Assembly: GCA_964413735.1 (NCBI GenBank)
Contig: CAYPSS010000001.1
Location: forward strand, 140,679 to 204,678
DNA: 64,000 nucleotides
From: an uncultured Gammaproteobacteria bacterium
GTDB lineage: Bacteria > Patescibacteriota > Patescibacteriia > UBA11705
Reading direction: 5' to 3'
Made by a program: the position numbers and the translations under genes. Shown here piece after piece: positions 2,799 to 54,161 of the stretch. Numbering within the stretch: position 1 is the stretch's first letter; each line of letters begins with the position of its first letter. The notes under the pieces were generated by a model that saw only the letters and a program-made list of their open reading frames with translations, was not told where the DNA came from and did no database searches.

Positions 2799-4553
2799 TT
2801 ATTGAGCAACACGGAAAACTTCTTCAATCGAGGTGATTCCTTGAGAGGCTTTAATTAAACCATCTTGGAGCATGGTTAACATTTGATTTTCCGTCGCCCA
2901 TTTTTCAATATCATCAGTTGATGGTGTTCCGGAAATAATATTTTTTCGCATTTGTTCATTAAGAACCATAATTTCATAGATACCAATGCGTCCTTTGTAT
3001 TTCAAATTATTGCATTTTTCACATCCTTGACCAATATAAAATTTTAAATTATCCATTTTCGGACGATCAGGATGATCAGATGGTATTTTATTTAATTCAG
3101 ATTTAATTATTTCTAATTCTTCAGGGGTTGGTTGATACTCAGTTTTGCAATTCTCACAAATACGGCGAACTAATCTTTGTCCCATAATTGTGTTAATCGC
3201 TGGCGCTAAGAAATGTCCTTTTACTCCCATATTCATTAAACGCGGAATTGCTCCGGCCGCATTATTGGTGTGAATGGTAGAAATTACTAAGTGACCGGTA
3301 AGTGCAGCATTTACCGCTACATCAGCGGTTTCCAAGTCACGAATTTCCCCCACCATAACAATATCCGGATCTTGACGTAAAATGGAGCGTAGGCCATCAG
3401 CAAAAGAGTATTTTTTGCTGTGATCAATTTGACTTTGATTGATGCCTTTTAAACGATACTCAATTGGATCTTCCAAGGTAATTATTTTTGTTCCTTCTTT
3501 GTTTAATTTATTTAGAATTGCGTACAAAGTAGTGGTTTTACCGGAGCCGGTTGGACCGGTGGTGATTATCATACCATGAGGTTTGGAGCTTTCTTTTTCC
3601 AATCGTGTTTTGGCAATGCCAAATAAACCAAGATCTTCAAATTGTAAACTGGCCGCTGATGATTTCAAAATACGCATTACCACTGATTCTCCATAAGAGG
3701 TTGGTAAGGTGGAAACACGGACATCAATTTCTTCGTCGCTTTTTAAAATAGTAAAACGACCATCTTGCGGTTTGTCATTGATGTTGATTTTCAAACCGGA
3801 AACTTGTTTGATGCGGGCGATCAATTGAGTCCAAATTTCTTTTTGCAAACTGGCTGCATCATGTAAAATACCGTCAACCCGCAAACGAATTTTCACCTCA
3901 TCTTCTTCGGTCTCAATATGAATATCAGAAGATCCAGATTGCAAAGCCGCAGCAATTATCAAAGAAGTCATTTCGGTTAAATTGGTGATTTTTTTTAATG
4001 ATTCATTTAGTTTGGTAAAGTCATTGCCCAAATTTTCATATTTTAATAAATCCTTTTCAGTAATCTCAATACCTTTGGGCGGTTTTTTGTAAACCGGAAT
4101 TTTGTCGTAAAGTTTTGCCGTTATTTCAAAGCTATGATCGGAAATTTGATATATTTCCACTTTACCGCGCATTCTTTCACCAATTTGATAAGCTAATTCC
4201 TTGATCTTTTCGTCATTGGGATTAACAGCACCAATTCTAATCTCTTGACCAACATATAAAAAGCAGATTACCTTTAGTTCTTCCGCAGTTTGACGTGGAA
4301 TAATGGCAATGGTTTCCGGGCTGATGGGAAATCCGATTAAATCAATATAAGGGAGACCTTGTTGGAAGGCTTTTTTTTGGATTTTTTGTTCTTGTTCTTG
4401 CAAACTGATATCTGTTAATTTTTGGCTTAATTTAGCGGTTGGAGATTGATCATCAGAGGCTTTGCTCGCGGTGGCTTTTGTTTTTGTGGCGGAGGTTGAC
4501 TTCAGTTGCTTCGGATCTTTCAACAAATCTTCAATTGAATTGGCAGTAACCAT
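2799..4553 (-). CDS. pilB: type II secretion / type IV pilus assembly ATPase (GspE/PilB family)
   Basis: 584 aa; Walker A GPTGSGKTTT, Walker B DPDIVMVGEIRD, C-terminal tetracysteine CENCK...CEKC, N-terminal GSPII_E_N-like domain. Confidence 0.9.
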   Translation of the reverse strand: MVTANSIEDLLKDPKQLKSTSATKTKATASKASDDQSPTAKLSQKLTDISLQEQEQKIQKKAFQQGLPYIDLIGFPISPETIAIIPRQTAEELKVICFLYVGQEIRIGAVNPNDEKIKELAYQIGERMRGKVEIYQISDHSFEITAKLYDKIPVYKKPPKGIEITEKDLLKYENLGNDFTKLNESLKKITNLTEMTSLIIAAALQSGSSDIHIETEEDEVKIRLRVDGILHDAASLQKEIWTQLIARIKQVSGLKININDKPQDGRFTILKSDEEIDVRVSTLPTSYGESVVMRILKSSAASLQFEDLGLFGIAKTRLEKESSKPHGMIITTGPTGSGKTTTLYAILNKLNKEGTKIITLEDPIEYRLKGINQSQIDHSKKYSFADGLRSILRQDPDIVMVGEIRDLETADVAVNAALTGHLVISTIHTNNAAGAIPRLMNMGVKGHFLAPAINTIMGQRLVRRICENCKTEYQPTPEELEIIKSELNKIPSDHPDRPKMDNLKFYIGQGCEKCNNLKYKGRIGIYEIMVLNEQMRKNIISGTPSTDDIEKWATENQMLTMLQDGLIKASQGITSIEEVFRVAQ

Positions 4554-4740
4554 ATTGTTTGATTATTATTTCAACTATCATTATAGCAGATTTGATAATT
4601 TTATAAAAATTCAAATATAAATTAAATAAATAGTGTACATAACTTGGTTTGCCAAAATCCCGATTTATGGGTAAAATACTAGCAAGCACAATTGTAGGTA
4701 ATAATTAACTATTTCTGAAATAAAATAAATAATCAAAAAT

Positions 4741-5649
4741 ATGACAAGACGAAAGAAAACAACAGCTGAAGATTTGGGGCTTGAGGTTGAAACTGTACAA
4801 GAAAAAGCAAAAAAAACCACAAACAAAGAAGAACAAGTTTCTTTGTTTACTTTAGCGGTGGTGGCAATTGTAATTTTAGCCATTGTGGGCGTGGTTTTTG
4901 GCTATTTCCGTGATCAATTATCGGAAATTAAAAAAGAAGGCAAAGAAAATGTTGCCTTAAACAGTCAATTGGAAATTTTAAAAAAAGAAATCTCTGATTT
5001 GACCAGCAAAGCGCAAAAACTGGAATTGGAAAATATCATGAACAAGGAAATAGTTTTGAATTTATTTGATAAAAATCGTGAATTGCCCGATGAAGTTAAT
5101 TTTGAAGGTTGGTCGGTTTATAAAAATGAAGAAGCCGGTGTGCAATTAAATATTCCATCTGATTGGGAAGTGCAAAGCGCTAATAAGATTATAAATTCCG
5201 TTGAAAAAATGCCGGCATTAAGTGATGAACAAAAAAAGGAACAACCAGTTTCACCCAGTGAAAAGACATTAATATCAGAGGACGCAGATCCTCAATATCA
5301 ATTGATGCTTCAGCCGAAAAATGTGGCGGAAATGATTAAGGCCATAACTTTAAAAGATGATTATGTTGACTTATGGAAATTAAGTTTAGAAGAAAAACAG
5401 GATGTTTTTGCTAAAATAAATTTCATTGATCAACAAGAGTTTGATTTGGGAGTATTACTATATTTCATTGATATTGATGATAAGGACAATCAAATTCCTA
5501 CGGTTTTAATTTTAACCGATGATCGAATTATGCGCGCTACCTTTAATATTTTGGATCGTAATGTAAGTAATTATGTAAAGTACCGTTTGGATTTTGAAGC
5601 TTTGGTTACGGGAATAGAATTTTTGCCTGTGGCGGAAAAGACGGAATAA
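4741..5649 (+). CDS. hypothetical membrane-anchored protein (short cytoplasmic N-terminus, one TM, coiled coil, about 200-aa extracytoplasmic domain); PilN/PilO-like architecture only
   Basis: 302 aa; TM LFTLAVVAIVILAIVGVVFGYF followed by heptad-rich segment; divergent from pilB. Confidence 0.5.
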   Translation: MTRRKKTTAEDLGLEVETVQEKAKKTTNKEEQVSLFTLAVVAIVILAIVGVVFGYFRDQLSEIKKEGKENVALNSQLEILKKEISDLTSKAQKLELENIMNKEIVLNLFDKNRELPDEVNFEGWSVYKNEEAGVQLNIPSDWEVQSANKIINSVEKMPALSDEQKKEQPVSPSEKTLISEDADPQYQLMLQPKNVAEMIKAITLKDDYVDLWKLSLEEKQDVFAKINFIDQQEFDLGVLLYFIDIDDKDNQIPTVLILTDDRIMRATFNILDRNVSNYVKYRLDFEALVTGIEFLPVAEKTE

Positions 5650-8592: not shown

Positions 8593-8646
8593 AATTCATT
8601 ATAAAAGAAAAAAACAAGACCTTGTCCTGTTTTTGAATTAAAGAAA

Positions 8647-9159
8647 TTAAGATTGTTGTAGTTTCCTGATAATGGGTTGAACCGCCGGATGCTTTGATTT
8701 CTTGGTCGGACTTTGGATCAATAATGTTTCTTGCCAGTAATTGTCCATTGACGTAGTTCGGCTATAGGTGGCCACTTCTTGTGTATCGGTATAATAAATA
8801 AAGGTTCTTAAATCACTCTTGTGAAACCAGCTAATATTTTCTGGACAATGAAGAATAACGATTTTGGCAATTTCAACTTCGCCATCGCGACTTTGTGGTT
8901 TTTGGCAAATTGAAATTACGGCAAAATATTGAGTATCTTTTTCTTTGAGAAAAGGAAAACAAATTCCAAGTTCATGCCATTGATTAAAAAATCCAATGTC
9001 CATCGGAGTAAAGTTTAGATACCATTGAGCCGTTAATTTTTTCACTTCATCTTGATTCAGACCAAGAGCGGAAAAAATCCAACCGACTTTTTCAAATAAA
9101 CATTTGAGAATAGCATTTTGATGAATTTTCTTCCTAATTAATTTGACGGTATCTGCCAT
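8647..9159 (-). CDS. hypothetical protein, paralog family A (170 aa)
   Basis: shares motifs with 9250..9759 product (GLNQ(D/E)EVK.L..QWY, ATYSRT, GKHP.VQ); own TTGACA-N17-TAAGAT promoter and SD gtcggagga. Confidence 0.55.
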   Translation of the reverse strand: MADTVKLIRKKIHQNAILKCLFEKVGWIFSALGLNQDEVKKLTAQWYLNFTPMDIGFFNQWHELGICFPFLKEKDTQYFAVISICQKPQSRDGEVEIAKIVILHCPENISWFHKSDLRTFIYYTDTQEVATYSRTTSMDNYWQETLLIQSPTKKSKHPAVQPIIRKLQQS

Positions 9160-9249
9160 TATTCCTCCGACATTTTTAATGCGTAGTTATCTTAACAAAA
9201 TCGTAACTCTTGTCAAATAAAAAAACAAGACATTGTCTTGTTTGTAGTA

Positions 9250-9759
9250 TTAGGCTTTTTGTAATTGGGCAATCAGATGTTGAACTCCCGGATGTTTTCC
9301 CTTGTTATTCGGATTTTGGATTAACAATAATTCTTCGCTGGAATTATCCTTAAGTACAGTCCGACTGTATGTAGCTACTGTTTGAGTATTCACATAGTTA
9401 ATGAAAGCGTTTAAATCTCCATTTTTAAACCAATCATCATTAGGTGTCTGGATAACAATGATTTTGGTTATTTCGACTTTTTCACTAGGGTCACGGGTTT
9501 CCTCGGAGTAGGAAACTACGACATAATAGTGAATATCAGCTTGGAGAAAAATTGGAAAGCAAACGGCAAATTCAGAGATGCGATTCCAAGAATCAGTAGT
9601 ATTTCGGGCAAATTCTATATACCATTGATTAACCAAACTTTTAACTTCTTCTTGATTGAGACCAAGAATTTTAAAGATCCAAGCGGCTTTTTCAGAGATA
9701 AATCTTAAAACCGTTTTTTGTACTGTTTGTTCATAGAGGAGTTTGATTTTTCTTTCCAT
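9250..9759 (-). CDS. hypothetical protein, paralog family A (about 169 aa; start moved to MERKIK after SD gaggtga)
   Basis: paralog of 8647..9159; promoter atttgacaaaaaatattcccctgctaagatg; track ORF begins 30 nt earlier. Confidence 0.55.
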   Translation of the reverse strand: MERKIKLLYEQTVQKTVLRFISEKAAWIFKILGLNQEEVKSLVNQWYIEFARNTTDSWNRISEFAVCFPIFLQADIHYYVVVSYSEETRDPSEKVEITKIIVIQTPNDDWFKNGDLNAFINYVNTQTVATYSRTVLKDNSSEELLLIQNPNNKGKHPGVQHLIAQLQKA

Positions 9760-9862
9760 TATCACCTCAGATTTTGAATGCGTAAGCATCTTAGCAGGGG
9801 AATATTTTTTGTCAAATAAAAAGAAGCGGTTTGAAGGCCGCTTCTTTGCGTAAAAATAAGCA

Positions 9863-11983: not shown

Positions 11984-12091
11984 ATTCTATACTATATTGT
12001 ATTAGATTTTTATCATATGTCAAGAGCGCTTGTCAAATGTATTTTTATAATAAATTAATGAAAAAACAGGACTTTGCCCTGTTTTGAAATA

Positions 12092-12625
12092 TTATTTTCT
12101 TTTATCTGCCAATGTACAAATAACTTGCATTCCCGTTATGATTATTTGCTTTAGACTTTGGACATAGGCACTATGATTGTATTTGCCCGTCTGAGGATTA
12201 ATTGCTTTTTTGATAGCGAGTAAATATAGACTTCGTACATCAAGAGAGCATAGCATTACCACTATTTCACGCATACTTAGAGTCATTGTTTTCGGATCAA
12301 AAGATGTACTCGATTGCTGAAAACGATGAGGCATCATGTTGGTTAAGGTTTCAACGTATTTATTGTAAGCGGTGTGATTGAAATTACCGTTTTTTGTTGC
12401 CAAATTAATACCGGCCATCATCAAAAATTGTAGCGGAGTTTCTAGGTAAAGGTTTCGAGCTGAATCTATCGTAATCCCTTGCGCTAAAATTTTTAATCCT
12501 TGTTCTGTTGCCCGATCTCGTTGGTTGAATGCTTGTTGATTGGCAAATGTTTGAATAAATCGACAGCCATAACGAGGATGTTGAGAGTCAAGGTATTCGT
12601 AAACAACATAATAAGGATTTGCCAT
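12092..12625 (-). CDS. hypothetical protein, paralog family B (about 177 aa; start at MANPYY after SD aaaggag)
   Basis: aligns with 12714..13241 product (YxVV(Y/F)EY(L/I)D..S..RGCRFI, LLAI(K/E)K(A/S)I(N/D)P(Q/D)TG); track N-terminus overlaps its own promoter. Confidence 0.55.
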   Translation of the reverse strand: MANPYYVVYEYLDSQHPRYGCRFIQTFANQQAFNQRDRATEQGLKILAQGITIDSARNLYLETPLQFLMMAGINLATKNGNFNHTAYNKYVETLTNMMPHRFQQSSTSFDPKTMTLSMREIVVMLCSLDVRSLYLLAIKKAINPQTGKYNHSAYVQSLKQIIITGMQVICTLADKRK

Positions 12626-12713
12626 GGCATCTCCTTTTGAAAGGACGTTTAAATTTATCATAATAATAAATTATTGTCAATCAAAAAAAACAGGACTTTA
12701 TCCTGTTTATTAA

Positions 12714-13241
12714 TTAAAATTCTTCTTCTGAACAGCCAAAAAATGATTTTATGCAAGTATTGATATTTCGATTATAGGCCACGTCATTAAATTCTCCGGT
12801 ATCCGGATCAATGGATTTTTCAATCGCCAGTAATACCAAACCTCTGCCATTGTCGTTCTTTTGACGAAGCGCAAGAATTTCATTTTCAGTAACTCTCATC
12901 TTGGGGTTGTGAAAAAGTTTTTGACTTTCAATAAAGCGTCGCATGAAAATCTGACGCATAAATTCAACTTTCATTTTGTAAAGTTCAAAACTGAAATTTT
13001 CTCCGTAAGTGGCATCGCCTACACAAGAACGCATCAAGCATTCCAGAGGAACTTCATTGCAGAGTTTCTGAGCCTCTGCTTCAGAAATTCCTTGAGCAAT
13101 TACTTTAATGATTCCATTCTCTTCTGATGTTTCTCGAGAATCAAAAGCTGTTTTATCGGCATAGTTGATAATAAAGCGACAGCCACGATAATCGCTTTTT
13201 GGATCAATGTATTCAAAAACAACAGAGTATTCATTTCCCAT
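12714..13241 (-). CDS. hypothetical protein, paralog family B (about 175 aa; start at MGNEYS after SD aaggaggg)
   Basis: paralog of 12092..12625; promoter TTGACA-N17-TATTAT upstream. Confidence 0.55.
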   Translation of the reverse strand: MGNEYSVVFEYIDPKSDYRGCRFIINYADKTAFDSRETSEENGIIKVIAQGISEAEAQKLCNEVPLECLMRSCVGDATYGENFSFELYKMKVEFMRQIFMRRFIESQKLFHNPKMRVTENEILALRQKNDNGRGLVLLAIEKSIDPDTGEFNDVAYNRNINTCIKSFFGCSEEEF

Positions 13242-13574
13242 TATTGCCCTCCTTGGGGTGAGAAAAAAAGAATACATTACATAATATCAATAGCAGTACG
13301 TTTTGTCAATTGTTTAGAAAAATAAAAAACAGGACGTTGTCCTGTTTGAAGTTAATCACTGAAAATCATTTCAAGAGTTTGAATGGTTAAATTTGACACA
13401 CCTGATTTTTGTAATTGGTCGCGTTTGCGGGCTAGATCAACAATTGGTTGGCAATTGAATTCTCCAGCGGATTTGTTTCTTCGGTGTTGATGATAAATGA
13501 TTAGCTGGCGTAAATATGCTTGTAGCATTTTCTTTTGTTTTTTCGTACAAAGGAAATAAATTATGAGCATTTTG

Positions 13575-15013: not shown

Positions 15014-15322
15014 ATGTGGACAATTGAATTGTTCCTGGGGGTAATGGTCGGAATTTTGATTTTGGGCATTGTGATTTTCCTCTATTGGTTATTAAAAGTT
15101 CGCATGATCGTTGATTTACATAAGATTGGGTTCCCGGCAAAAGTGATTATGGATCGCTGGTATTGGAAGGTGACAATTATTTATAATGGGCAGAAAATAC
15201 AACATGAATTTGGTGGCGATCATCAAACTATCAGGGTTGGCGACGCAATCTTGGATATTAATTTCTCAGATAAATTGCCCTTGAGATTTTATCGTAATTT
15301 CTCGGCATCGGAGGCACAATGA
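15014..15322 (+). CDS. small single-pass membrane protein, tandem family member 1 (102 aa)
   Basis: N-terminal TM then beta-rich domain; shares (V/I)(D/N)L..(I/V)G(F/Y)P..V..R motif with next four genes; ATGA overlap with next gene. Confidence 0.55.
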   Translation: MWTIELFLGVMVGILILGIVIFLYWLLKVRMIVDLHKIGFPAKVIMDRWYWKVTIIYNGQKIQHEFGGDHQTIRVGDAILDINFSDKLPLRFYRNFSASEAQ

Positions 15323-15717
15323 ATCTGGTCGCTGAATATTTTAATTGGGTAATTATCGGATTGCTCGGTGCGGAAAAAATGAACAAATTCAATTTTATTT
15401 TTGTTTGGTTCACTTCATTAGCTCTTTTTATTTTATTGTTGTTTTTGGCGCATGGGATGTTGGTGTTGATTCGCTATTTGTTGTTTGTAAAGTGGTTTTA
15501 TTATATTAATTTGAAATCACTTGGTTATTGTGGTCATGTGTTTGTAAATCGTATTACTCGTCGCGCTGTTTGGTGGAATGGTAGATTAAGTAAGAAAATC
15601 AAAAATCCAGAAAAACTAGATTACCAAACAATTGAATTCATGGATGTTAAAATTGTGGTCAATTTTACTCTTCGTCAGCCGGTAAAAATTTATAAAAAGG
15701 GGGTGAACGATGATTAA
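15319..15717 (+). CDS. small single-pass membrane protein, tandem family member 2 (132 aa)
   Basis: paralog of 15817..16203 (FNW(V/L)..G.LG..KM motif); translationally coupled. Confidence 0.55.
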   Translation: MNLVAEYFNWVIIGLLGAEKMNKFNFIFVWFTSLALFILLLFLAHGMLVLIRYLLFVKWFYYINLKSLGYCGHVFVNRITRRAVWWNGRLSKKIKNPEKLDYQTIEFMDVKIVVNFTLRQPVKIYKKGVNDD

Positions 15718-15820
15718 ATATTTGGTTGGGGTTGAATATATGTTTTTCCCCTGTGAGCTTGATTTTGAGAGTAAATTTCCTTTGACTTTTTATCGCTTTT
15801 GCCCGGAGGGAGAACAATGA
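15710..15820 (+). pseudogene. 36-aa internally deleted remnant of a family member (MIKYLVGV...KFPLTFYRFCPEGEQ)
   Basis: N-terminus identical in style to member 5 (MIKYLVGVG), C-terminus like member 1 (KLPLRFYRNFSASEAQ); bounded by the duplicated ATGATTAA junction and an ATGA overlap. Confidence 0.45.
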
Positions 15821-16203
15821 ACATGGCTCAGCAATTTTTCAATTGGTTAGTGACCGGCGTTTTGGGCTTTGATAAAATGACGCAATCCAGTTATGTGGTA
15901 GCTTGGTTTTTGCTGGTAGTACTTGTTGTTGTTGGTTGTTTTATAGTGGCTGTTGTTTTGCGTTTTGTTTTTATTGATTTATTTTATGTGAATTTGAATC
16001 GTGTTGGTTATCCCGGTCGAGTGTTGATTGATCGACGGCGTCGACGTGGTATTGCTTGGTTCGGGAAAGTTGTTGTTTATGTAAAAAATGAAGAAAAAGA
16101 TTTGGTCCGAATTATTCCGCTTTTTGCCGGGACAAAAATCAAAATCAGCTTTAATAATCGTTATCCTGTAAAGCTTTTAACTCCGGAGGATCGTGATGAT
16201 TAA
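15817..16203 (+). CDS. small single-pass membrane protein, tandem family member 4 (128 aa; start MNMAQQ after SD ggaggga)
   Basis: paralog of 15319..15717; track ORF starts 18 nt earlier inside the SD. Confidence 0.55.
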   Translation: MNMAQQFFNWLVTGVLGFDKMTQSSYVVAWFLLVVLVVVGCFIVAVVLRFVFIDLFYVNLNRVGYPGRVLIDRRRRRGIAWFGKVVVYVKNEEKDLVRIIPLFAGTKIKISFNNRYPVKLLTPEDRDD

Positions 16204-16513
16204 GTACTTGGTTGGTGTCGGATTGTTACTTTTTCTGCTGGGTGGTTGGGTTTATTTGAGGAAATCAAAGAAGTATTATTTGAAAGTTGATTTAAAGCCT
16301 TTTGGTTTAAGCGGTTATGCCAATATTGATCGCACGAAAAAGCAAGTTCTTTTTGTTGTTGGTGAGCAAACACGGCGATATTTTAATGTTGAGGGTAGTC
16401 GAATAATTAAAATTGATCACGTGGAGTTATTGGTGAATTTAGATGTTGATCCGCCGATTAAAGTTTTGCCCGTTTCTCGGCCAACGGTTAATATGCGCGC
16501 AACAAAAAAGTAA
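16196..16513 (+). CDS. small single-pass membrane protein, tandem family member 5 (105 aa)
   Basis: ATG within the conserved gtgATGATTAAgtac junction, overlapping the upstream stop by 8 nt. Confidence 0.55.
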   Translation: MIKYLVGVGLLLFLLGGWVYLRKSKKYYLKVDLKPFGLSGYANIDRTKKQVLFVVGEQTRRYFNVEGSRIIKIDHVELLVNLDVDPPIKVLPVSRPTVNMRATKK

Positions 16514-37087: not shown

Positions 37088-38728
37088 ATGGGTTCTTTAC
37101 AACCTCTAACGGAGGATATAACAATGGGTTGGCGAAAACGACATTTGCTTGGAATCACTGAATTTACTGTTGATGAAATGGCTTACATCATGCGAAAAAG
37201 TCGGGAAGTGGAAATTGCTTTGCAACGACACGATCAAAGAGGGTATCAGTTTATCACTGATCCTGATGTGGTAGTGGGTAAGGCGATGTTTGAAGACAGC
37301 ACCAGAACACGAATCAGTTTTGAAGCAGCTGCTCGTTTATGCGGTGCGGTTGTGGAAGGTTTTGATTCAGCCAAAGGCACTTCTTATTCCAATAAAGGTG
37401 AGTCAACGGCGCATACCATGATTATGCTAAATGAATATCGAGCCGTGGTTGCTTTTGTTAGACATCATCTTGATGGTGCTCCACGTCATATTGCGCAAGT
37501 AATGCAACAGCGACAAATGTGTGGTGCACCTTTTACCGGAATCATTAACGCTGGCGATGGGAAGCATGAACATCCCACTCAAACCATTTTGGATCGTTAC
37601 ACGATTTTGAAAGCATTAAATCGTTTGTCGCCAGATAGTGATCATCAATATTCATTGCGTGGATTAACTATTTTGCTCGCTAATGATCTGAAATATGGGC
37701 GAGTTCCACATTCCAATGTCAAGGATTTTGCCCGTGATAAAGTGCATTTTATTTTTGTGGCTCCACCGCAAATGCAAATGCCGGAAATGTATCTTCGTTA
37801 TATTGAAGAGTGTGGCAGCACTTATGAGATGCATGATCGTTTGGATGATGAAGTTTTGCATCGGCCTGATGTTGTCTGTATGTTCCGTAGTCAGTTTGAA
37901 AGAATGCCTCCGGAAATTCAAGCGGAATTACGGGCGACCAGAAATGATTTTATTATGACACCGGAAAAAGTAAAAGCCATGAAACGCGAAGCGATTTTGC
38001 TTCATCCTTTGCCGATTCCGCGCTGGGATCCGGAAATTCATCCGTTGGTTGATAATTTATCGCAAGCCATGTATTTTGAACAAGCCGGTAATGGTATTCC
38101 GACCAGAATTGTGGAAATTGCTTTAACGGCCGGATATTTGGGCGAAGATTTTGAGGGCCAAACTTTTGTGGAAGAAACAGAAGAAGATATTTTCTTTACC
38201 CAGCGTCCGCATGTGGCGCGAGAGCATGATGGTTTGCACAGTATTCGTCCGATTCAAGATGGGGTGGTAATTGATCATTTGCCACCCGGTGAAGAAATCA
38301 CTTTGCTCATGATGCTTCATCATCGAAAAGGCGATGAACATCGAATTGCGACGGTGGAAAAGAAAAACCATCCCGGACAATACAAAGGAATGTTGATGTT
38401 GCCGGGCCGTGAGCTGACGATTGATGAATTGCGATTGGTTGGGGCGCGCGTGGGTGGACGGTTAACGCATGGTGAACCGGTAACCGTCAATACCATTCGT
38501 GGCGGACAAGTGGTGCAAAAATTGGATTTGCAAATGCCGCGTGCAGTGGTAGGGCTTGGTTCATGTAATAATATTATTCGTGATGCGCAAGGTAATGTCA
38601 TGGGTGGTTGTATTGCCCACCCGTATTTCAATGAACATGCGACGCCTCATTTTGTACGCGTGGCGGAAAATCTTTATCGTTGTTGGTATTGTGACCAACT
38701 GCATCAAGCCAGTGAAATTTTTAGCTAA
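37088..38728 (+). CDS. pyrB: aspartate carbamoyltransferase catalytic domain fused to PyrI-like regulatory domain
   Basis: 546 aa; STRTR, HPTQ, RSQFER, HPLP motifs (1-330), then PyrI-like IQDGVVIDHLPPG and C-terminal C..C/CWYC zinc domain; alternative start 37124 (MGWRK) after SD acggagga. Confidence 0.75.
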   Translation: MGSLQPLTEDITMGWRKRHLLGITEFTVDEMAYIMRKSREVEIALQRHDQRGYQFITDPDVVVGKAMFEDSTRTRISFEAAARLCGAVVEGFDSAKGTSYSNKGESTAHTMIMLNEYRAVVAFVRHHLDGAPRHIAQVMQQRQMCGAPFTGIINAGDGKHEHPTQTILDRYTILKALNRLSPDSDHQYSLRGLTILLANDLKYGRVPHSNVKDFARDKVHFIFVAPPQMQMPEMYLRYIEECGSTYEMHDRLDDEVLHRPDVVCMFRSQFERMPPEIQAELRATRNDFIMTPEKVKAMKREAILLHPLPIPRWDPEIHPLVDNLSQAMYFEQAGNGIPTRIVEIALTAGYLGEDFEGQTFVEETEEDIFFTQRPHVAREHDGLHSIRPIQDGVVIDHLPPGEEITLLMMLHHRKGDEHRIATVEKKNHPGQYKGMLMLPGRELTIDELRLVGARVGGRLTHGEPVTVNTIRGGQVVQKLDLQMPRAVVGLGSCNNIIRDAQGNVMGGCIAHPYFNEHATPHFVRVAENLYRCWYCDQLHQASEIFS

Positions 38729-38735
38729 AATTAAA

Positions 38736-38758
38736 ACCTCGAAAATCGAGGTTTTTTT
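38736..38758 (+). terminator. intrinsic terminator after pyrB-pyrI fusion (cctcgaaaatcgagg + T7)
   Basis: perfect 6-bp stem + T-tract. Confidence 0.65.
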
Positions 38759-38962
38759 GTGCTCAAAGTTCAATAATTCGTATATTCGTGGTTTTTGTAT
38801 ATTTGTTTTCATATTTTTTACTCAGACTCTGAAACAAGTTCAGAGTGAGATAAAAAACTTTTCACTTTCACACTCGTTATGCTTGTCCTTATTGACAACT
38901 AAAAATATTATGTTAAGATAGTCAATCCGCCCAGAGCGGAGGTTCTTTGACTGGAGGTTGGT
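38759..38962 (+). repeat. about 205-bp upstream cassette (hairpin actctgaa/ttcagagt, TTGACA-N17-TAAGAT promoter, 5'UTR hairpin, SD), copy 1
   Basis: about 97% identical to 39653..39858. Confidence 0.8.
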
Positions 38963-39616
38963 ATGGGAGAAGTAGTAAGATTGATTAAGTGTCCGATTTG
39001 CAGAAAAACATTTTCTGGTAGAGACGTGTTTAAATCACACATTATGGATTGTAAAAAAAATCAAAATGTCTTGTTTGTAAAAAATGAATTTATGGATATG
39101 TTTTCTCCTGGGACTTGTATTTGGGTCCATCGTCCAGCATTGGAGAAGGATTATCCTCAATTTAGGGAACAGGTATATGCTTTTTTGAATGCAAACAATT
39201 ACATTGCTGGTCAGATCTTATTTTCAAATTGTGATATCCAGTTCTTAACGGAAGAAACATCACCAGATAATAAGAGAAAAAGAAAGCAATTTATTAAGAT
39301 GGTTTTTACTTTGGTGATTTGGTTCCCGTATAATGATCGCGATGATTATGATTATACAAATGGAGAAGATTTGGCGCTTAGTTTGTCAGCAACTTTTTCT
39401 GGACAATTTCATACTATTCAGAAATCTAAGAGGTTTGTTAAGTTGAGTACACGAACATGTTACCCAGAAAAACGTTATTTTGAAAGTGATTGTGGAATTA
39501 TCGTTATTTATGATAAAGACACAAGGGCACAAATTTATTTTGCCCGCCAAGCCTCTGATGTCAGAATGGACACTAATGCCTTTAGTGATTTCGTAGAAGA
39601 GATAATTCCTAAGTAA
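38963..39616 (+). CDS. N-terminal C2HC zinc-finger protein, family D (217 aa)
   Basis: IKCPICRKTFSGRDVFKSHIMDC (C-x2-C-x12-H-x3-C); paralog of 39859..40563 (about 25% identity). Confidence 0.55.
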   Translation: MGEVVRLIKCPICRKTFSGRDVFKSHIMDCKKNQNVLFVKNEFMDMFSPGTCIWVHRPALEKDYPQFREQVYAFLNANNYIAGQILFSNCDIQFLTEETSPDNKRKRKQFIKMVFTLVIWFPYNDRDDYDYTNGEDLALSLSATFSGQFHTIQKSKRFVKLSTRTCYPEKRYFESDCGIIVIYDKDTRAQIYFARQASDVRMDTNAFSDFVEEIIPK

Positions 39617-39652
39617 AAAACAAATTAGGCCAAGACAATGTCTTGGTTTTTT

Positions 39653-39858
39653 GTGCTCAAAGTTCAATAATTCGTATATTCGTGGTTTTTGTATATTTGT
39701 TTTCATATTTTTTACTCAGACTCTGAAACAAGTTCAGAGTGAGATAAAAAGCTTTTCACTTTCACACTCGTCATGCTTGTCCTTATTGACAACTAAAAAT
39801 ATTATGTTAAGATAATCAATCCGCCCAGAGCGGAGGTTCTTTGACAATGGAGGTTTGT
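39653..39858 (+). repeat. about 205-bp upstream cassette, copy 2
   Basis: near-identical to 38759..38962; starts right after terminator ccaagacaatgtcttgg+T. Confidence 0.8.
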
Positions 39859-40563
39859 ATGGGGAAAATGCTAACTAAGTTGTTTAGATGTCCTAATTGC
39901 AATCAGCCATGTTATGATGCTGAAAGTTTGCATGAACATAAAAAGACTTGTTCTCAATATAACTACATGAGGAATTTTTACGATAGAGTGATGAAAGAAT
40001 TTCGTTCGGAAGGTTGTTTGCTTGTTTCTCGTAGTGTGGTAGAAAAGGAATTTCCCCAATTGGCTTCCCAGGGATATTGCCATATCAATGCGGTTAATCA
40101 AGTGGCTTGTGAAATTTTGCATTTTGATTGTGATTGTCGAGTGGTTAAAAATAGTAAGAAAAAAAGGGTTGCCAATCATCGAGTACAGAAGGGCGTTTCC
40201 TCTGATATACCTATTTTTAGGCTTAAGTTGACTTTGATTGTTTGGTTCCCTTCATCTCCTGATAAAATGTTTTGTGATGGGAAGGATCAAGCTTTTAAAT
40301 TTGAAGCCAATTATCAGGGATCGGTAGATGAATTGTTTAAGGAACCGGATTTGCGGTATTTGTATGAATATGATGGCTGGGGTCCTGGTCGTGTGCAAGG
40401 GTTTGTTTGTGATGATGGTATCCGTTTCACCTTGTTGTCGGTGGGAAGTTTGGCTGATATTTTCCATGAAAACAACGCGAGAAAACGGGCGAAAATGGGG
40501 AGTGATAGAGATTATCACATGACTTCTCCACGAATGATTTTTTTTGATCGTCATATCCGATAA
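39859..40563 (+). CDS. N-terminal C2HC zinc-finger protein, family D (234 aa; start MGKMLTKL after SD ggaggt)
   Basis: FRCPNCNQPCYDAESLHEHKKTC; track ORF starts 18 nt earlier. Confidence 0.55.
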   Translation: MGKMLTKLFRCPNCNQPCYDAESLHEHKKTCSQYNYMRNFYDRVMKEFRSEGCLLVSRSVVEKEFPQLASQGYCHINAVNQVACEILHFDCDCRVVKNSKKKRVANHRVQKGVSSDIPIFRLKLTLIVWFPSSPDKMFCDGKDQAFKFEANYQGSVDELFKEPDLRYLYEYDGWGPGRVQGFVCDDGIRFTLLSVGSLADIFHENNARKRAKMGSDRDYHMTSPRMIFFDRHIR

Positions 40564-40658
40564 TATAGCATTCTATTAAATCAAGTAAATCAAGACAATG
40601 TCTTGGTTTTTTGGTATAAAAAAACACCTCCGATCAAGGAGGGTGTTTTTATTGGTAA

Positions 40659-51951: not shown

Positions 51952-52407
51952 ATGACAACTTCAAAAAAAATTTTATTTTTTTTGGTGTTACTGGTTTTGA
52001 TTGTCGCCGGTTGGTGGTTTTTTAGCGCGCGTGAATCATCTCCGGCGCTGAACAACAATCAGTTGGTTAATGAACAAAATCAAGACAACCAAAATGTTGG
52101 TTTAGCTAATCCGGCTAGTGTGAATTGTCTTGATCAAGGTGGTCAATTGGTAATGAAAGAAAAGCCGGATGGTAGTCAGTATGGTCTTTGTTACTTCGAT
52201 GACAATCGCGCTTGTGAAGAGTGGTCTATGTATCGCGGGGATTGCCCGGTCGGGGGCATGAAAACCACTGGTTATGATACTGAGGCACAAAGATTTTGTG
52301 CTTGGAATGGTGGTAGTACTACAGCCACGGAAAACGCTTTATGTGTTTTGCCTGATGGTCGTGCTTGCTTGGCAGATGATTTTTATCTTGGCCAATGTGA
52401 AGAATAA
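51952..52407 (+). CDS. secreted DUF333-like (putative-hemolysin family) protein with two Cys-rich repeats
   Basis: 151 aa; signal/TM then NPASVNCLDQGG...GLCYFDDNRACEEW...GDC repeated. Confidence 0.55.
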   Translation: MTTSKKILFFLVLLVLIVAGWWFFSARESSPALNNNQLVNEQNQDNQNVGLANPASVNCLDQGGQLVMKEKPDGSQYGLCYFDDNRACEEWSMYRGDCPVGGMKTTGYDTEAQRFCAWNGGSTTATENALCVLPDGRACLADDFYLGQCEE

Positions 52408-52433
52408 ATTATAATAAGGTTTAAAATAAAAAA

Positions 52434-52452
52434 CAGTCGATATTATCGACTG
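52434..52452. terminator. palindromic terminator cagtcgatattatcgactg, bidirectional, shared by the DUF333 gene and ZnF paralog 52463..53026
   Basis: perfect 7-bp stem; T-tract on minus strand; near-identical hairpin at 53177..53197. Confidence 0.6.
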
Positions 52453-52462
52453 TATAAATGTA

Positions 52463-53026
52463 TTATTCCAGTTTTGTTAAAGCATAGTGAGCACTTTTTT
52501 CAATTTGTCGAAGTTGTTCTCTGATTTCACTGATTTGTTCATCGGTTAGAGCTTGTTTCCCAAAAAAGGAGTGCTTTTCACCTTTATAAACCCCTGTTTG
52601 TAAAAATGATTCTAAACAATAAATCAATTTTTCTCTGGTAATGTCAGAGAGATGATCAGTAAAGTATTCGCTAACAATTCCATTCATATTAACCACCCTA
52701 TATTGAATATAGATCCCATAATCACCATCAACAGTTTGAACAGCAGAATTATCATTTTTAACGCTAATTCCCGTAACTTCAACTAAAAGAAAGTTCACGC
52801 CCTCAACTTCAGAGGAAATACCGTGGATTGGCCCATAGAAAAGGGCGCCTGCTTTTACATGAGCTTGGCCATGTAAATTGATTCTTAGAAAAAGAAAATC
52901 TCCGTGCTGTATAAATTCTTCAATTAATCTACAAACATTTTCATGATGAATTGCCTCATTCCCAGTTTCAAAATCTTTATTGCAATGTTCGCATTTATAA
53001 CGAGTCACTTGAATCTCTTTTGCCAT
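52463..53026 (-). CDS. N-terminal C2HC zinc-finger protein, family D' (187 aa)
   Basis: YKCEHCNKDFETGNEAIHHENVC (C-x2-C-x3-F-x7-H-H-x3-C); paralog of 53204..53758. Confidence 0.55.
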   Translation of the reverse strand: MAKEIQVTRYKCEHCNKDFETGNEAIHHENVCRLIEEFIQHGDFLFLRINLHGQAHVKAGALFYGPIHGISSEVEGVNFLLVEVTGISVKNDNSAVQTVDGDYGIYIQYRVVNMNGIVSEYFTDHLSDITREKLIYCLESFLQTGVYKGEKHSFFGKQALTDEQISEIREQLRQIEKSAHYALTKLE

Positions 53027-53106
53027 ATCAACCTCCAGTATTGGGCGTTTATCACGCCCGAAAAAATGTCAAAAAACATTGATACTTGATTTTAACTTAT
53101 TCATGG
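53024..53106 (-). repeat. about 80-bp conserved promoter/5'UTR cassette with operator-like palindrome GGGCGT-N5-ACGCCC (53043-53059), copy 1
   Basis: identical over about 78 bp to 53756..53838. Confidence 0.8.
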
Positions 53107-53203
53107 TTTTTGTCAACTGAATTACATAATAAGTTTCAAGAAATAATTTTTTAGACGGATAATTGTCAATTAAAAAGCAGTCGATGTTATCGACTGCTTG
53201 GTT

Positions 53204-53758
53204 TTATAAGGGGTTTAATTTACCCCAAGCATGATTGAAGTTGTCTCGAGCTTCCAGAATTTGATCGCTGATTCTTTTTAATCCGTTGGGGGAAATCACT
53301 TGAGGGTGGAAGAAAAGAGCGGAACGCATTTGCAAAATACCGGTTGTCAGATAGGTCTTGAGTCGTTCAATTAATGCTACTCTGGTGATCCCTGACAAAT
53401 TATCGGTCAGAGTATATTCTTGACTTGATTTACCCGGCAAAACTTTGCACTTTAAAACGAATTGGTATGTATCTTTTTTTTCTCTTTCGGCAATTTCAAA
53501 CCAAGTTACTTCCACTAAAACAAAATCATTGAATTTTCTTTCCGAAGTGAATTCTTCAATTTGGTCACAAAAAGCTGCCGCTTCTTGTAACTCCGCATAT
53601 TGCGAAACGCCAATATTCATGAATAATAGAGTGCCAGGTTTAACGAATCGGGAAATGAGTTCACAAAGATCTTCGTGATAGGTAGCTTCTTGTTGGGTTT
53701 CAAAATGACATTCGCAATAATCGCACTTGAATTGTCGTACTTGTATTTCACTTGCCAT
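53204..53758 (-). CDS. N-terminal C2HC zinc-finger protein, family D' (184 aa)
   Basis: FKCDYCECHFETQQEATYHEDLC; terminator gcagtcgatgttatcgactgc downstream. Confidence 0.55.
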   Translation of the reverse strand: MASEIQVRQFKCDYCECHFETQQEATYHEDLCELISRFVKPGTLLFMNIGVSQYAELQEAAAFCDQIEEFTSERKFNDFVLVEVTWFEIAEREKKDTYQFVLKCKVLPGKSSQEYTLTDNLSGITRVALIERLKTYLTTGILQMRSALFFHPQVISPNGLKRISDQILEARDNFNHAWGKLNPL

Positions 53759-53838
53759 ATCAACCTCCAGTATTGGGCGTTTATCACGCCCGAAAAAATG
53801 TCAAAAAACATTGATACTTGATTTTAACTTATTTATAA
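53756..53838 (-). repeat. about 80-bp conserved promoter/5'UTR cassette with GGGCGT-N5-ACGCCC palindrome (53775-53791), copy 2
   Basis: identical to copy 1. Confidence 0.8.
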
Positions 53839-54161
53839 GTTTTGTCAACTGCATTATAGTTGTGAATTTAATTAGATGTTTTGGTTGAAAAAAATAGCAT
53901 TTTTTTGCGATTAATTTACCTTAAATTAGTCAAATATATTGAGTTGTGGACAATAAGCTTGACAAGTACTTGACGATAGGCTTATTTTTTGCTAGAATAT
54001 ACTCATATTAATAACTTCCCTAAGCGGGAACTGTATCTTTTGATTGTGAGTCGGAGATAGGGTTTCCAAAAAAATTCACATGATTATTAGGGGATTTGTG
54101 GACAATTTAACTTAACTTTTTTAAAAAACTCGTTCCTCATGAAGAGGGAGGAGTATATTTT

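Follow-up and report, generated by a model that had tools for sequence, protein, structure and literature searches.

In a 64-kb stretch of core-genome DNA from a low-GC (~36%) genome of the Patescibacteria (candidate phyla radiation, CPR), positions 140,679 to 204,678 of contig CAYPSS010000001.1 (hereafter the window, meaning the whole stretch analysed), we have identified two adjacent zinc-finger genes, zfA1 and zfA2, with nearly identical control regions and strongly diverged coding sequences (CDSs). The upstream cassettes, R1 and R2, agree at 97.2% of positions, against 47% of nucleotides and 26% of amino acids in the genes behind them; alignment thus bears out the original prediction for this locus, according to which the flanks are better conserved than the CDSs. 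We consider it probable that gene conversion recently made, or has kept, the control regions and terminators of these old tandem paralogs alike, so that both would carry the same expression signals. The same pattern was found in a second pair of finger genes, zfB1/zfB2, in the same window. The features of the first pair (pair A) are the following.

38753..38967, plus strand: R1, the whole intergenic control cassette of zfA1, with the T-tract of the pyrBI terminator as its left end and codon 2 as its right end
38824..38848, plus strand: CGTC-type REP (repetitive extragenic palindromic) hairpin in R1; its R2 counterpart lies at 39718-39742
38892..38919, plus strand: predicted sigma-70-type promoter of zfA1 (TTGACA, 16-nt spacer, TG-extended TAAGAT)
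38926..38940, plus strand: zfA1 leader stem-loop TCCGC-CCAGA-GCGGA, the same in both copies, from the centroid fold
38953-38957, plus strand: Shine-Dalgarno sequence (SD) of zfA1, GGAGG
38963..39616, plus strand: zfA1, a 217-aa orphan with an N-terminal C-x2-C-x12-H-x3-C finger
39630..39653, plus strand: predicted intrinsic terminator of zfA1, CCAAGAC-AAT-GTCTTGG plus T6, whose T-tract forms the first 7 nt of R2
39647..39863, plus strand: R2, control cassette of zfA2, 97.2% identical to R1
39786-39791, 39808-39813, 39820-39834 and 39849-39853, plus strand: −35 box, −10 box, leader hairpin and SD of R2
39859..40563, plus strand: zfA2, 234 aa, with 26% identity to its paralog zfA1; two other samples have it at 99.7-99.9% identity
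40590..40613, plus strand: predicted intrinsic terminator of zfA2, with the same 23-nt core as that of zfA1

R1 and R2 are 98% identical over 199 ungapped nt and 97.2% identical over 212-217 nt (BLAST E=8e-100), in agreement with the near-identical upstream elements described earlier. They differ by four substitutions (38857 A/G, 38878 T/C, 38921 G/A and 38960 G/T) and by a 2-nt indel after 38951, and none of the five changes touches the core motifs, i.e., the REP hairpin, the −35 and −10 boxes, the inner leader hairpin and the SD. Similarity begins with the T-tract of the terminator upstream and collapses within 5 nt past the ATG. Between these edges the cassette is laid out, 5′ to 3′, as ~70 nt of AT-rich DNA, the REP hairpin, a spacer of ~45 nt, the promoter, a GC stem-loop, GGAGG and the start codon.

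The two copies are also seen outside this assembly. The variants specific to R1 and to R2 are the same in other samples, and one of these (L124) has an additional single-nucleotide polymorphism (SNP) private to R1. Among the Logan contigs of other samples, two (L125 and L126) end 30 nt (k−1) into R1 and two (L001 and L002) begin exactly 30 nt ahead of position 39815, where R1 and R2 differ by a SNP, and carry the R2 variants. Contigs of at least four other samples therefore break at the edges of the repeat or at a copy-distinguishing SNP, which is the behaviour expected of a de Bruijn graph where a repeat truly exists in two copies.

The genes themselves are old duplicates. Their products share 26% identity over 156 aa, covering the first ~150 residues (BLASTP E=7e-18), and 25% globally, which matches the earlier estimate of about 25%. 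Over the aligned codons the nucleotide identity is 47%, with 0.40 at third positions, and the same codon is used at 30 of 53 conserved degenerate residues, compared with 26.8 expected from codon usage. Synonymous sites are thus saturated, and zfA1 and zfA2 are ancient paralogs rather than a young duplicate under positive selection. As the duplication is ancient, the identity of R1 and R2 cannot be left over from it; nor could ~215 nt of mostly AT-rich non-coding DNA have stayed 97% identical while the CDSs became saturated, and the flanks must consequently have been copied recently. Diversifying selection, proposed earlier as the cause of the low protein identity, finds no support in the age of the divergence or in the behaviour of zfA2 between strains: this gene differs from its counterparts in two other samples at 1-2 of 705 nt, no more than the housekeeping neighbours (equal to or below the S1 gene and below the gene of a metallo-β-lactamase (MBL)-fold protein or gyrA). 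Recent gene conversion, which had been suggested alongside, is the best-supported cause, given the saturated synonymous sites and the second pair, in which the leaders are identical here and differ at eight positions in a sister strain.

Concerted evolution of tandem paralogs by intrachromosomal gene conversion is an established process, for example in bacterial tuf and rrn genes. The zfA locus resembles these cases in that one segment of paralogous units is nearly identical and far younger than the duplication, and in that the tracts are bounded by loss of homology. It departs from them in what was converted: control regions and terminators here, with CDSs at 26-33% identity over the two finger-gene pairs, instead of the CDSs that are homogenised in the usual case. 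The sequence pattern leads us to infer the following course. The two genes would belong to a lineage-restricted family of small proteins with long-diverged coding sequences, and each would be transcribed as a unit of its own, from a strong sigma-70 promoter and through a short leader with a 5′ stem-loop and a GGAGG, up to an intrinsic terminator of its own. Non-reciprocal homologous recombination between the adjacent units would recently have homogenised the non-coding flanks, the conversion tracts ending where homology ends, at the start codon on one side and at the T-tract of the upstream terminator on the other. With shared flanks both paralogs would be driven by the same expression signals; matched co-expression, which we infer from this, would suit partners that act together.

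The zfB pair came to light in whole-window scans for repeats and for the finger motif. It consists of tandem orphans encoding proteins of 33% identity, each with an N-terminal C-x2-C-x12-H-x3-C finger, arranged as follows.

53204..53851, minus strand: zfB1 unit, with the CDS at 53204-53758, the promoter/leader cassette at 53759-53851 and the leader hairpin at 53775-53791
52428..53119, minus strand: zfB2 unit, with the CDS at 52463-53026, the cassette at 53027-53119 and the terminator at 52428-52453
53752-53833 (zfB1) and 53020-53101 (zfB2), minus strand: identical 82-nt stretch

The zfB cassettes are 96% identical over 100 nt from the −35 box to the ATG and show no similarity upstream of the −35 box. 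Within this segment, the 82 nt from the −10 box through the leader hairpin and the SD into codon 3 are 100% identical. The terminator of zfB1 (53172-53197) is a near-copy of that of zfB2 (52428-52453). All four finger genes have the leader end TGGAGGTTnnTATGG in common, and they are the only open reading frames (ORFs) of the window with such a finger and such a leader end. An hhalign comparison of pair A with pair B gave a probability of 10%, over the finger only. A search of JGI metagenomes returned no relatives of pair B.

A Logan contig of another sample, L123, is 97.9% identical to the window over 3.7 kb and carries both zfB genes. Its two 82-nt leaders show eight mutual differences (five private to zfB1 and three to zfB2), whereas those of the window are identical at 82 of 82 positions; identity is thus not enforced everywhere by selection and is recent in the window lineage. 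The differences between L123 and the window are clustered. The CDS of zfB1 has none in 555 nt and its product is 100% identical, 25 fall in the 200 nt just upstream of zfB1, and a second hot spot of 33 covers the cassette and the N-terminal half of zfB2; elsewhere there are 0-3 per 200 nt. In zfB2 (3103-3666 of L123, 52463-53026 of the window) there are 19 amino-acid differences between strains that are otherwise 98-100% identical; 17 of them lie within residues 1-75, surrounding the zinc finger or following closely on it, and two in the C-terminal half. The ratio of non-synonymous to synonymous polymorphism (pN/pS) of zfB2 is 0.67. Such mosaic clustering at the cassettes is a signature of recombination with breakpoints at the cassettes. 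The pattern would be explained either by conversion of zfB1 from zfB2 in the window lineage or by import of diverged alleles in L123; both would amount to recombination that makes use of the conserved cassette. Downstream of zfB2 the gene order differs as well: L123 has metK (3667-5174) where the window has an ORF for a 151-aa signal-peptide-like protein (51952-52462), and the boundary of this rearrangement or insertion falls right at the zfB2 terminator.

Several points weigh against gene conversion as the explanation. Pair A has no outgroup, and conversion there rests on the pattern and not on a test of phylogenetic incongruence. Both tract ends lie at functional boundaries, the start codon and the terminator T-tract, which would also fit the copying of a ‘promoter module’. 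For pair B, parsimony alone does not decide whether the window lineage underwent conversion or L123 took in diverged alleles. Two other tandem orphan pairs of the window (8647-9789 and 12092-13277) lack homogenised upstream regions, so conversion is not general for tandem genes here, and a factor peculiar to finger genes may play a part, perhaps selection that matches their expression. The promoter, the start of transcription and the terminator are predictions.

A rival account takes R and the pair-B cassette for a portable promoter/leader module that was recently placed ahead of a gene already present, by some mechanism other than homologous conversion, e.g., illegitimate recombination or template switching. 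Near-identical promoter pairs were the commonest class in a survey of putative mobile promoters (Matus-Garcia, Nijveen & van Passel 2012, NAR 40:10032; PMC3488235), and the zfA genes share with these elements similar upstream regions of 50-200 nt in front of CDSs that do not align as nucleotides. In operational terms R qualifies: more than 50 nt are at least 80% identical between −150 and −50, whereas the CDS fragments from +50 to +150 and the upstream genes give no blastn alignment, and none is found in the CDSs beyond ~+40. The edges of the cassette are functional edges, the leader end TGGAGGTTnnTATGG is common to four genes, and the promoter type TTGACA-16-TGTTAAGAT was seen before further orphan genes too. 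The genes downstream are nevertheless homologous as proteins (26% identity, E=7e-18) even though the nucleotide comparison would class them as unrelated; as adjacent, co-oriented true paralogs they are an ideal substrate for conversion, which sets them apart from the surveyed promoters. The terminators were copied as well. We found no sign that R has moved to unrelated loci: the 64-kb window holds no copy beyond R1 and R2, the R leader was not found in JGI metagenomes nor the R promoter in viral contigs, and no mobility gene was seen nearby among the window ORFs checked. On balance we regard promoter propagation as unlikely.

Because both finger-gene pairs show the pattern and the two non-finger pairs do not, and because strain differences pile up at the cassette borders, one may also picture the leader and terminator modules as more than a by-product of conversion, namely as a working system of C2HC-finger genes: promoter-bearing expression cassettes without an integrase, by whose conserved arms a CPR population would swap and re-assort extremely diverged finger-protein alleles, or an autoregulatory circuit of the finger proteins acting on a shared leader or operator, possibly with a co-opted REP. 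We consider this picture unlikely.

A further rival is functional constraint, by which the cassette would be a cis-regulatory element (for example an operator or leader RNA, with autoregulation by the finger proteins) kept alike by purifying selection. The untouched core motifs of R and the restriction of the pattern to finger genes would suit it, and so would the 17-nt leader hairpin of pair B, intact in all four sequences from two strains; the chance of its escaping the eight changes is ~0.16, however, so that its intactness is not significant. Selection on the flanks, suggested in the original prediction, cannot by itself account for ~140 nt of AT-rich DNA upstream of the −35 box that is 99% identical in pair A and unconserved in pair B, nor for leaders that vary between strains. 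The pair-B leaders differ from each other at 8 of 82 sites within L123, and R1 has its private SNP in L124. No Rfam family matches the cassette, and its leader folds no better than shuffled sequence. We consider functional constraint improbable.

Exchange of cassettes between strains, another rival, is to our mind just as improbable. Leader and terminator would here serve as homology arms for swapping diverged finger-gene alleles, making the locus one of population diversity. The differences between strains that are otherwise 98% identical do adjoin the cassettes (17 against 2 amino acids in the two parts of zfB2, none in zfB1, 25 nt upstream of zfB1), gene order past zfB2 differs (metK or the 151-aa ORF), and the gap between pyrBI and the S1 gene is variable. 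In contrast, zfA2 hardly varies in two other samples, exhaustive searches of 1.84 billion representatives turned up no additional allele or member of the family, and pN/pS of zfB2 is 0.67 and not >1. A collapsed or duplicated repeat in the assembly has practically no probability left and is refuted, since the copies differ at four SNPs and one indel, and in independent assemblies, from four or more samples, the branch points fall exactly on the edge of the repeat or on a SNP that tells the copies apart, with R2-specific variants present.

Gene conversion between the paralogs therefore remains our preferred reading, and the expression signals it would have spread can be described from prediction. 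In the promoter of zfA1 the TTGACA and TAAGAT boxes proposed earlier are present; the spacer is of 16 nt and not 17, with a TG-extended −10 box, and a consensus scan gave 10 of 12 matches with the TG. The GC stem-loop (TCCGC/GCGGA) would lie at a distance of 1-3 nt from the predicted start of the mRNA. Of the 5′UTR hairpin described before, this inner stem is common to both copies, whereas the outer AGTCAA/TTGACT pairing is perfect in the first copy only, the second having AATCAA/TTGACA. The leader fold is no more stable than that of shuffled sequences (z=+0.5), and at E-values up to 10 Rfam returned no match over the promoter, leader or REP part of R1 and R2. Weak, sub-threshold Rfam matches (Phe_leader, rimP, BSnc120, STnc370) fall on terminators, at the left edge of R1 and downstream of zfA2; the remaining ones are all weak and lie inside coding sequence. 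The idea of a riboswitch was dropped, as was that of a small ORF inside R, for in the only ORFs running across R the substitutions between R1 and R2 change the amino acid.

The terminators of zfA1 and zfA2 had been called identical. This is true of a 23-nt core, CAAGACAATGTCTTGGTTTTTTG, at 39631-39653 and 40591-40613, whereas the first base of the stem differs (CCAAGAC vs TCAAGAC). The hairpins belong to a family of near-identical members, CA[AG]G[AG]Y-N3-RYCYTG followed by a T-tract, of which the window holds seven, each directly behind a small lineage-specific tandem gene (8615-8629, 9226-9240, 12067-12081, 12691-12705, 13330-13344, 39631-39645 and 40591-40605). Five of them thus lie in the 8.6-13.3 kb region and two behind the zfA genes; the copy behind 9250-9789 shares an identical 15-nt hairpin. 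Housekeeping genes of the window have other terminator hairpins, never of this family.

The REP hairpin inside R deserves separate treatment. The 8-bp hairpin ACTCTGAA/TTCAGAGT, noticed earlier in both copies, is indeed present at 38826-38846 and 39720-39740 (two matches, 0.01 expected). With its flanks it forms the element AGACTCTGAAACAAGTTCAGAGTGA, which matches a multi-genome repeat at 25 of 25 nt, and in R1 it widens, in the DNA fold, to an interrupted palindrome of 44 nt (38814-38857). These are the only two REP copies of the window. Its 21-mer ACTCTGAAACAAGTTCAGAGT occurs at more than 115 loci among the matches listed in GTDB species-representative genomes, where ~0.3 are expected by chance. 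The hosts come from about ten phyla and include Bacteroidota, Ignavibacteriota, Alphaproteobacteria, Spirochaetota, Melainabacteria, Elusimicrobiota, Caldisericota, WOR-3, Nitrospirota and Patescibacteria, the last with Falkowbacteria, a relative from this group carrying at least three copies on one 261-kb contig.

In 812 kb of such loci we counted 231 perfect-stem instances of a conserved unit of 25-27 nt. The stems covary, with six main compensatory variants (ACTCT, ATGCT, ACCCT, ATCCT, ATTCT and ATTCC), and conservation extends to the loop (ACAAG or ATAAA) as well as to the unpaired flanks AG...GAC(R). In particular, the 3′ flank reads GAC (209-217 of 231 per position) and then A or G, which is (C/T)GTC on the opposite strand. 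Inverted pairs 20-30 nt apart are frequent. By crude ORF calls, 29 instances lie between convergent, 61 between unidirectional and 5 between divergent genes (5 of the 95 classifiable), and 8 are intragenic; gaps between divergent genes are thus avoided. The motif GAGACTCTGAAACAAGTTCAGAGTGAC(R) is nearly base-for-base conserved across about ten phyla. No match to the hairpin was found in 2.9 million viral contigs, no Rfam family covers it in R or at eight other loci, and a literature search with the hairpin sequence strings gave nothing useful.

CGTC-tagged REPs have been described as elements with a (C/T)GTC tag, an 8-9-bp stem starting with A-T and a loop of 4-5 nt, which form head-to-head dimers, lie between unidirectional or convergent ORFs, occur in five phyla and have no dedicated transposase (Di Nocera, De Gregorio & Rocco 2013, BMC Genomics 14:522; PMC3733652). 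Judged by its sequence features, the R hairpin matches this superfamily and would belong with it: stem, loop, covariation, inverted dimers, unidirectional or convergent location and spread over many phyla all agree. In R the stem of the hairpin ACTCTGAA/ACAAG/TTCAGAGT is of 8 bp and opens with an A-T pair, and the loop is of 5 nt; the second pair of the stem is C-G and not T-A, which follows A-T in the ATGCT, ATTCT and ATCCT variants. It is unlike the described elements in its degenerate tag (flank GAGA, i.e., TCTC, a 2/4 match to CGTC and 3/4 to CCTC), in being a singleton within a promoter-proximal cassette, 46 nt upstream of the −35 box, and in the number of host phyla, about ten here versus five. 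We regard the hairpin as a passenger that was already in the cassette at its last copying. A role as a protein-binding palindrome at this distance from the −35 box may be envisaged.

The finger proteins have few recognisable features. The zfA products appear to combine one classical-type ββα C2HC finger with a domain of ~180-190 residues for which no relatives were detectable. A word-indexed search of 5.8 billion clusters gave only self matches, and an exhaustive profile search against 1.84 billion representatives yielded nothing but multi-finger proteins that are unrelated and match residues 7-33. Outside the finger neither protein has a match in Pfam, NCBIfam, PADLOC or PHROG, or any structural match. 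In all four proteins (zfA1, zfA2, zfB1 and zfB2) the finger is spaced C-x2-C-x12-H-x3-C, its last ligand being Cys. In zfA1 the Pfam families zf-C2H2, zf-met and zf-C2H2_jaz score 17-19 bits (gathering cut-offs 21-25) and in zfA2 they give no match, whereas a profile built from the pair recovers designed or consensus C2H2 finger proteins in the PDB (2i13, E=2e-7; 1mey, E=4e-4). AlphaFold2 models, of low confidence, place two short strands and then a helix at the finger. The N-terminal 30 residues of the zfA proteins are thus comparable to classical C2H2 fingers (PF00096 and relatives) in the C-x2-C-x12-H-x3-(C) spacing and the ββα prediction, and unlike them in having Cys instead of His as fourth ligand, in occurring as a single finger of a bacterial protein and in scoring below the Pfam gathering thresholds. 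Nucleic-acid binding is a reasonable guess from the resemblance of this one finger to C2H2 fingers.

Taken together, the locus offers a clean bacterial case of regulatory regions that evolve in concert with each other, twice within 64 kb, while the coding regions behind them remain at 26-33% identity, and a probable example of recombination that keeps paralogs co-expressed. A consensus promoter and SD in front of every finger gene would predict strong expression. The pattern is real and recurrent, but it lies within known phenomena (concerted evolution, promoter reuse and REP elements) and involves no new mechanism. Its main interest resides in the orphan finger family and in a leader homogenisation confined to finger-gene pairs. 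This single-finger, classical-type family appears to be confined to one Falkowbacteria-like lineage, and in an episymbiotic CPR bacterium its members are candidate nucleic-acid binders with a role particular to the lineage.

The genes surrounding these pairs belong to the core genome and include tsaD, groES/EL, nusA, recA, ftsK, clpP, RNase Y, the pyrB-pyrI fusion, S1, gyrA, rpoB and rpoC. Candidatus Falkowbacteria RIFOXYC2_FULL_36_12 is collinear with the window at 70-76% nucleotide identity, and the nearest homologs of S1 are found in Falkowbacteria and other Patescibacteria. Just upstream of R1, at 37088-38728, the PyrB catalytic and PyrI regulatory domains of aspartate carbamoyltransferase are fused in one ORF of 546 aa; the Pfam domains OTCace_N, OTCace and PyrI were recognised in L124, whose protein is identical. 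The gap between pyrBI and the S1 gene differs among Falkowbacteria-like relatives (11359-13094 in L122, 11236-11407 in L119/L120): it contains nothing in one lineage, three unrelated small ORFs (two of them for membrane proteins) in another, and zfA1/zfA2 here. The spot thus varies, and the zfA pair is an insertion specific to its lineage. No integrase, transposase or other recombinase was seen among the window ORFs scanned, and phage and plasmid searches gave no DNA or protein match. We rejected an integron gene cassette, as each gene has its own consensus promoter, no recombinase was present among those ORFs and the neighbours are core genes; the 3′ hairpins are terminators of 15-17 nt followed by T-tracts and not attC sites. 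A retroelement of the diversity-generating type was dropped, with neither a recombinase nor a reverse transcriptase nearby.

Other small tandem genes are present in the window. Two pairs of orphan paralogs lie on the minus strand, 8647-9159/9250-9789 (170 and 179 aa, 42% identity) and 12092-12661/12714-13277 (189 and 187 aa, 37% identity), and each member has its own TTGACA...TAAGAT-type promoter and its own terminator. The genome seems to be rich in duplicated monocistronic orphan units placed between core genes. Finally, 15014-16513 on the plus strand encodes four small membrane proteins in a row, of 102-134 aa.

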